DNA of 1,077 nucleotides, from assembly GCF_003334335.1 (NCBI RefSeq), contig NZ_QOWQ01000123.1, one strand, 5' to 3'. The DNA comes from Escherichia coli (lineage in GTDB: Bacteria; Pseudomonadota; Gammaproteobacteria; Enterobacterales; Enterobacteriaceae). The notes below the pieces were generated by a model that saw only the letters and a list, made by a program, of their open reading frames with translations, did not search any database and was not told where the DNA came from. This document shows positions 1 to 1,077 of the stretch, piece after piece. Both the position numbers and the translations under genes were made by a program. How positions within the stretch are numbered: position 1 is the first letter of the stretch; each line of letters starts with the position of its first letter.

Positions 1-344
1 TATGACCACGCATCGGTACGTAACAGATATCCGCTACCTGTGAAATGAATCCATTCTGATTCACCAACGTCACTGGTCTGATGCGACAGCGAGTACAGCC
101 AGGCGTTATCCTTTTCCGTGATATGTGCGGTACTGCAGCGTATGCCGGCAAGGGTTGCAAACGGTGGTAGTGTGCAGGTTGACTGTTGGTCGGATTCCTC
201 CACCACGCGGAGTGAATAACCGTTTTCAGCGACCTTGTTAATCAGTTCAGTGAGATTAACACCATCGACGTCAACGACAATTCGCCCCATGTTCAGTGCC
301 TGCACATTAATTCTGTCGGCTTCCAGCATCAGGGAAAGTTTCAT
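1..344 (-). CDS. Small protein downstream of the toxin, probable YeeW/DUF5983-like; 3'-partial (runs off the window at position 1)
   Basis: ATG at 344..342 overlaps the toxin TGA (minus-strand ...AAACGATGAAAC...). I translated the frame by hand and it stays open for 114 codons to the window edge: [114 protein letters not shown]... A GGAG Shine-Dalgarno lies 5 nt upstream of the ATG. It is absent from the supplied ORF track, presumably because no stop falls inside the window. The family assignment is from recollection of conserved synteny (cbeA-cbtA-yeeW), not from recognising the sequence itself. Confidence 0.6.
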
Positions 345-715
345 CGTTTCTCCGGATGCTTACCCAGGGTAATGTTATTTACCGTTCTGTAATTGTCGCG
401 GGTCATCAGGCCGGTCGCCCGGCGAGCCCGGAGGATATCAATACTGTTTATTAACTGAGAGCGGGGACAAGTGCTGAATCCCGGCTGGTCGGTACGCACC
501 AGCGCGTATTTTTCCACGAGAAAATTCACCGCATCACACAGTGAAATGCCAGCTTCAATATGCTGCTCAATCACACGTTCATCGGCGAACGGTGTGTCAT
601 TCAGTGTAAGGCCGTAATGCTGGCCCAGTAGTCGGGAGAGCAGAGTCTGCCAGATGGTGACGGGAGACGGGCAGCTCGATGCCTCCCGTACGTGTGTATC
701 GGGTAATGTTTTCAT
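341..715 (-). CDS. cbtA: Type IV toxin, CbtA/YeeV (YpjF/YkfI) family, complete 124 aa
   Basis: Complete ORF with ATG at 715..713 and TGA at 343..341. The translation carries the conserved core I recognise from E. coli CbtA paralogs ([57 protein letters not shown]...[34 protein letters not shown]). It sits immediately downstream of a YeeU-family antitoxin on the same strand, which is the canonical gene order. The symbol is family-level; the N-terminus ([26 protein letters not shown]) may be closer to the ypjF-type paralog. Confidence 0.93.
350..353 (-). promoter_or_regulatory. Shine-Dalgarno (GGAG) for the downstream gene, embedded in the last codons of the toxin
   Basis: Minus-strand GGAGAAACGATG: GGAG followed by a 5-nt spacer and the ATG at 344..342. 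The position inside the upstream CDS together with the ATGA overlap indicates translational coupling. Confidence 0.5.
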
Positions 716-804
716 ACTGAAGGTTTTCCTGATATGCAGAGATGAAAAATGGAAAAGTGGCGTGGTGAAAGCACCAGGCCGGAGCAGAAGGTTATTCCGG
801 TGGT
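716..804. other. 89-bp antitoxin-toxin intergenic spacer
   Basis: Non-coding on the gene strand between the antitoxin TAA (807..805) and the toxin ATG (715..713). It contains short inverted repeats (ccgga/tccgg at 779..783 and 796..800; tggtg/cacca at 763..767 and 772..776) and an A/T-rich tract at 741..757. Confidence 0.5.
727..730 (-). promoter_or_regulatory. Putative weak Shine-Dalgarno (AGGA) for the toxin
   Basis: Minus-strand CAGGAAAACCTTCAGTATG: AGGA with an ~11-nt spacer to the toxin ATG at 715..713. The spacing is longer than optimal, consistent with modest toxin translation. Confidence 0.35.
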
Positions 805-1077
805 TTACTTTTTCGTTTCGGGCGTCGGATAAACAGCCAGATAAACGTAACCACAGGAGCCGAGGGTGTCAGCTTTGCAGGTCAGACCTTTTGCATACAG
901 CGTGACGGTATGCTGATGGCGGGGATTCAGTTCACCGCTGGTGAGCATGAGTTCCAGTTGTTTCATCAGCAGCGGAAAGGCCTGGTCCAGGTGGTACGCA
1001 TCTGCATCGCTGAACAGGCCTCTGATACCGGCGCGGTCGGCAAGGTAATGCAGGCGGTTACCCTCCTGCACCAGACG
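805..1077 (-). CDS. cbeA: Type IV antitoxin, YeeU/CbeA (YfjZ/YafW) family; 5'-partial, N-terminus lies beyond position 1077
   Basis: The minus-strand frame is open from the window edge (codons [90 protein letters not shown]) to a TAA stop at 807..805. From memory this matches the C-terminal ~90 residues of E. coli YeeU-family antitoxins (~122 aa) almost residue for residue. The 'M' at 1071 in the ORF track is an internal GTG (Val) codon, not the true start. The symbol is family-level; the exact paralog (yeeU/yfjZ/yafW-like) cannot be resolved without alignment. Confidence 0.92.

Follow-up and report, generated by a model that had tools for sequence, protein, structure and literature searches.

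We conclude that the 1,077-nt stretch of Escherichia coli DNA analysed here (the window) very probably carries one copy of a CbeA/CbtA (YeeU/YeeV) module, as found in P4-like cryptic prophages and islands of E. coli and close relatives. The system is already known, as the original prediction had stated, and the allele is already annotated in many genomes. Loci 99.5% identical to the window carry the RefSeq names 'type IV toxin-antitoxin system YeeU family antitoxin', 'TA system toxin CbtA family protein' and 'DUF5983 family protein'. No NCBIfam model matched any of the three window proteins, and hence these RefSeq names must rest on other evidence.

The window contains three consecutive reading frames, all on the minus strand. 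The 3′ part of a cbeA/yeeU-family antitoxin gene (positions 805-1077; 90 codons plus a TAA stop) is followed by an 89-nt spacer (716-804), a complete cbtA-family toxin gene (341-715; ATG to TGA, 124 aa) and the 5′ part of a gene of the DUF5983 family (Aec77/YeeW-like; 1-344; 114 of 162 codons), which leaves the window at position 1. The toxin stop codon (TGA, 343-341) and the DUF5983 start codon (ATG, 344-342) overlap in an ATGA sequence at 341-344. The toxin-antitoxin pair predicted at 341-1077 is indeed present, with both reading frames at these positions; the predicted antitoxin-then-toxin order is seen on the minus strand, which the prediction implied without naming it. Three features go beyond what had been predicted: the DUF5983 gene at 1-344 with its ATGA overlap, a cysteine at residue 15 of the toxin, and a patch of substitutions at 855-865 in the antitoxin gene.

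Identity of the antitoxin and toxin genes

The antitoxin frame is open to the edge of the window, and its 91 codons include the stop. The encoded part therefore has 90 residues and not the 91 originally given, in which the stop had been counted; the length of 124 aa given for the toxin was correct. The antitoxin part matched Pfam family CbeA_antitoxin (PF06154; E=2e-44, model positions 16-100 of 101) and the structure of E. coli YeeU (PDB 2H28; phmmer E=3e-55, 86 of 89 residues identical). Further PDB matches were 2INW, 2JN7 and 2EA9, and YfjZ structures matched at about 1e-36. In near-identical loci the antitoxin gene is intact and encodes 122 aa from a GTG start, which means that 32 N-terminal residues fall outside the window; the antitoxin promoter and the first 32 codons lie beyond position 1077.

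The toxin frame (341-715, minus strand) contains neither a frameshift, which had been named as a finding that would speak against the prediction, nor an internal stop. Its product matched Pfam family CbtA_toxin (PF06755) over the full length of the model (E=1.1e-61, query 1-112 to model 1-112 of 112) and is 100% identical to WP_000854753.1, an annotated E. coli protein known as Aec76. A PDB search with the toxin returned no solved relative (best E=0.21). Taken together, the E-values of the two family models and the match to the YeeU structure place the assignment to the CbtA and YeeU/CbeA families beyond chance, and the homology check that had been proposed for the pair was thereby passed.

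Comparison with named systems gave a graded picture. Closest is the Aec76 locus (WP_000854753.1 with the YeeU-family protein WP_001315620.1; strain CV839-06 and many others), of which the toxin and the DUF5983 part are 100% identical to those of the window; the DNA is 99.5% identical over 1077 nt, the difference being five substitutions at 855-865. The K-12 CbeA/CbtA module of cryptic prophage CP4-44 shares with the window the gene order, the ATGA overlap, the phenylalanine at toxin residue 65 and a closely aligning spacer of nearly equal length (88 versus 89 nt). The near-identity to the E. coli paralogs that had been claimed for both proteins holds for the antitoxin part, which is 96.6% identical to K-12 CbeA, but overstates the case for the toxin, which is 87.9% identical to CbtA, likewise a protein of 124 aa. 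The two toxins differ at their C-termini (HPEKR in the window, YPEAK in K-12 CbtA) and throughout residues 6-20, where the window toxin has an N-terminal haplotype distinct from that of K-12 (VLPGQAASSR in K-12); both haplotypes are present among the toxin alleles collected. The YafW/YkfI (CP4-6) and YfjZ/YpjF (CP4-57) pairs consist of the same two Pfam families in the same order, and their toxins also have Cys15 and Phe65. They are more distant from the window in sequence (toxin: YpjF 65%, YkfI 59%; antitoxin: YfjZ 71%, YafW 68%), encode shorter proteins (109-113 and 105 aa) and have a spacer of 20 nt instead of 89 nt.

The five clustered substitutions at 855-865 distinguish the window from the near-identical copies examined. 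They change AGC GGT into TCC TGT, and thereby Ser-Gly into Ser-Cys (Gly to Cys), at the antitoxin C-terminus. The resulting GSCGY motif is also present at the C-termini of YfjZ and YafW, with other codons. The 15-nt window version, GGCTCCTGTGGTTAC, was present in none of the related loci compared, and no full-length match above 99.5% to the window was found in 5426 complete E. coli genomes. For a 101-nt query spanning the patch, 96% was the best identity among the matches listed, and an exact search with 46 nt against GTDB species representatives returned no match. The sequence comparisons indicate that this is probably a short recombination patch derived from an unsampled paralogue; it is without evident consequence. 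We also considered gene conversion by K-12 yfjZ or yafW as its origin. The K-12 paralogues are not the donor because their codons (AGT TGC GGC) differ from those of the window (TCC TGT GGT).

The toxin gene directly follows the CbeA/YeeU-family gene in the same orientation, with 89 nt between the antitoxin stop and the toxin start, and its product of 124 aa fits the size of about 110-125 aa expected for the family. An AGGA Shine-Dalgarno-like motif (729-726) lies 10 nt ahead of the toxin ATG. A hairpin with a U-rich tail behind it can be drawn in the spacer (GGCCUGGUG-CUUU-CACCACGCC), and we considered whether it serves as an attenuator in the gap between the two genes. The fold z-score of the spacer RNA was only -1.9, and none of the seven alleles compared had compensatory changes; one of them breaks two pairs without compensation and another has a 4-nt insertion. 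Neither an attenuator nor any other regulatory structure in the spacer is thus supported. The longest plus-strand reading frame (654-905, 83 aa) runs antisense across the spacer; it had no Pfam match even at E≤10 and is treated as a chance frame.

Other scans of the window returned little. No Rfam family was detected on either strand at E≤1, and the promoter scan detected no promoter-like site within the window, for which reason the genes, in the order antitoxin, spacer, toxin and DUF5983, are probably expressed as one transcript from the minus strand. Two terminator-like sites were found, both within the toxin coding sequence, and their number did not exceed that in shuffled sequences. None of the PADLOC defence models matched. 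In PHROGs, only the toxin had a match, a partial one (E=6e-10) to a family without assigned function, and hence this search lends no support to a role in defence or in phage structure.

Genomic setting and distribution

Of 5426 complete E. coli genomes, 4937 contained related DNA by megablast, the median being three places per genome and the maximum 14. [quoted passage not shown] The best matches had 99.5% identity across the full 1077 nt. More than 1000 contigs on record encode the exact toxin sequence, under names that include 'cytoskeleton-binding toxin CbtA-like protein' and 'Aec76'.

The window itself shows only the DUF5983 side of the surrounding gene block, and its context is therefore read from near-identical loci. 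Loci 99.5% identical to the window, or with an identical toxin, share a block consisting of DUF905, DUF932, antirestriction, RadC/JAB, DUF987, CbeA, CbtA, DUF5983 and a small DUF957 gene, and in related loci Ag43 and a YeeR-like gene are often present further upstream. This layout, with DUF932, antirestriction, RadC/JAB and DUF987 upstream and DUF5983 downstream of the pair, is that of the K-12 cryptic prophage CP4-44 (Ag43, YeeR, ..., antirestriction, RadC/JAB, DUF987, CbeA, CbtA, DUF5983), and its outline is common to CP4-6 and CP4-57.

The identical toxin allele was found in at least three chromosomal neighbourhoods, namely beside the gsp genes for type II secretion, beside cadC/cadBA and beside nanC-fimB, and its partner antitoxins vary at the N-terminus. 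At the level of sequence, the several neighbourhoods and the varied antitoxin N-termini indicate a mobile, recombining island. Homologues are also present on plasmid records from Escherichia, Klebsiella, Citrobacter, Enterobacter and Salmonella. Several of the PLSDB 'plasmid' records that contain the module (NZ_CP134663.1, NZ_OL790696.1) are 4.8-4.9 Mb long and are evidently mislabelled chromosomes, so that plasmid counts for the toxin are inflated. In the phage collection a homologue was found in only one record, which is 3.2 kb long and unannotated; this single record provides no evidence of carriage by active phages.

Targets of the toxin and extent of the unit

The biology of the family has been worked out mainly on K-12 proteins. 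K-12 CbtA blocks division through the H6/H7 loop of FtsZ, an activity abolished by F65S, and blocks elongation through the flat, double-protofilament face of MreB, an activity abolished by R15C (PMC5624674). The R15C variant has lost the interaction with MreB, while its interaction with FtsZ and its toxicity remain, and the two activities are genetically separable (PMC5624674). Phe65 is required for the FtsZ interaction in CbtA, YpjF and YkfI alike (PMC5624674). The antitoxin CbeA binds FtsZ and MreB and stabilises bundles of their filaments (cited in PMC5624674 and PMC5371832). It reportedly does not interact with the toxin, the defining trait of a type IV system (PMC5371832). Neither CbeA nor CbtA autoregulates the operon (PMC5371832).

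By homology with these K-12 proteins, the 124-aa toxin of the window would bind the FtsZ H6/H7 loop via a surface that includes Phe65 and so block division; elongation may likewise be blocked, through binding of the toxin to the flat face of MreB. The antitoxin would bind and bundle the filaments of both proteins, and this bundling would counter the toxin at its targets and not by sequestering it, as expected for type IV. The predicted targeting of FtsZ and MreB, and the predicted action of the antitoxin without binding the toxin, agree with the K-12 reports (PMC5624674, PMC5371832), from which toxicity, targets and neutralisation are here extrapolated to the window allele. A homologue from Erwinia amylovora keeps both Arg15 and Phe65, and its toxicity is relieved by its own antitoxin. 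It produces elongated and not lemon-shaped cells, and had no interaction with FtsZ or MreB detectable by yeast two-hybrid analysis (PMC6521040). Family membership, therefore, is no guarantee of targets.

We weighed the functional module against the reading that the genes are a decaying, functionless remnant. Such modules reside in cryptic prophages with many pseudogenes nearby, and on the Klebsiella oxytoca plasmid NZ_LR890315.1 the toxin has been cut to 87 aa, while antitoxin and DUF5983 are still annotated, which provides an example of toxin decay. Both reading frames of the pair are intact within the window, however, an identical toxin recurs on the many contigs mentioned above, and the toxin covers its Pfam model completely. 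The intact frames largely refute decay, which we consider very improbable. A finer question is whether the toxin acts on division only, binding FtsZ and not MreB by virtue of its Cys15, and would thus give rise to filaments instead of lemon-shaped cells. Phe65, the FtsZ determinant, is conserved, whereas codon 15 (671-673, minus strand) specifies Cys in place of the Arg of K-12 CbtA, so that the mapped MreB determinant is absent. The same exchange in K-12 CbtA is the one that separates the two activities, and the window toxin is 88% identical to that protein, with Cys15 embedded in the diverged N-terminal haplotype. In view of the sequence, MreB targeting cannot simply be assumed for this allele. 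Yet YpjF, in which Cys15 is natural, still binds MreB and blocks elongation; YkfI, which also has Cys15, still blocks elongation; and C15R had no effect in either (PMC5624674), which argues that the contribution of position 15 depends on its context. Since the segment from residue 6 to residue 20 differs as a whole from K-12, an argument from a single residue is moreover weak. Cys15 alone is consequently no proof of lost MreB targeting, and we regard a toxin restricted to division as possible but rather unlikely. Neither does Cys15 exclude the protein from the CbtA family, because YpjF and YkfI also have it; Arg15 is specific to the K-12 CbtA allele and does not define the family.

The other alternative concerns the extent of the unit, which would comprise more than two genes if the DUF5983 protein, and perhaps the DUF957 protein as well, were a working part, acting, for instance, as a modulator or as a second neutraliser whose translation is coupled to that of the toxin. 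The DUF5983 part was recognised by Pfam (DUF5983_N, E=5.5e-29; DUF5983, E=4.9e-8) and is 100% identical to WP_000777548.1 over 114 aa. A GGAG motif is located 5 nt upstream of its start, within the 3′ end of the toxin gene. The ATGA overlap is conserved in K-12, as it is in all the other intact alleles that were compared. Beside the identical toxin, DUF5983 was present at its full length of 162 aa in nine of the ten places returned, the tenth being called as 144 aa from a later start. An E. coli survey also found DUF5983 to be a regular downstream partner of CbtA_toxin (PMC10790755), and a preprint describes DUF5983 proteins as consistently encoded beside cbtA/cbeA; the association with the module has thus already been noted by others. 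With 223 representatives at E≤1e-3 in a search of 1.84 billion proteins, the family is small. An AlphaFold2 prediction from 44 diverse members reached high confidence (pLDDT 88.3, pTM 0.65), which marks DUF5983 as a real folded protein. An assignment of function via the fold was attempted and abandoned: despite the good model, comparison with the PDB returned no meaningful fold match. In a near-identical locus (L008, 9100-9120, plus strand), the only coding-strand terminator-like hairpin outside coding sequence follows the small DUF957 gene. Its position suggests that cbeA-cbtA-DUF5983-DUF957 are transcribed as one unit, the putative terminator being a consensus match only. Against a larger working unit, yeeW of K-12 is truncated to 64 aa and K-12 CbtA/CbeA nevertheless behaves as a two-gene pair in experiments, so that a role of DUF5983 in the module is possible but unproven. 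The linkage may, besides, reflect no more than the shared ancestry of an island that is young and recombines. We hold the larger unit to be a tentative proposal, with the two-gene module clearly favoured. Somewhat more doubtful still is the combined proposal that DUF5983 is a functional third component of CbtA/CbeA, be it a regulator or a sensor of the trigger, and that the Cys15 haplotype encodes a toxin that acts on division only.

Implications for CbtA/CbeA modules

As a textbook type IV module, which automated annotation recognises in thousands of genomes and of which an E. coli genome has about three copies, the pair has little discovery value. There is modest value in two aspects: the common Aec76 allele departs from the K-12 toxin at the one position mapped for MreB binding, and tightly coupled to the toxin is DUF5983, a protein with no known function and no known relative in fold. 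DUF5983 is intact beside the toxin in related loci but truncated in K-12, the strain from which nearly all experiments derive. Both the Cys15 haplotype and DUF5983 could refine the understanding of CbtA/CbeA modules.
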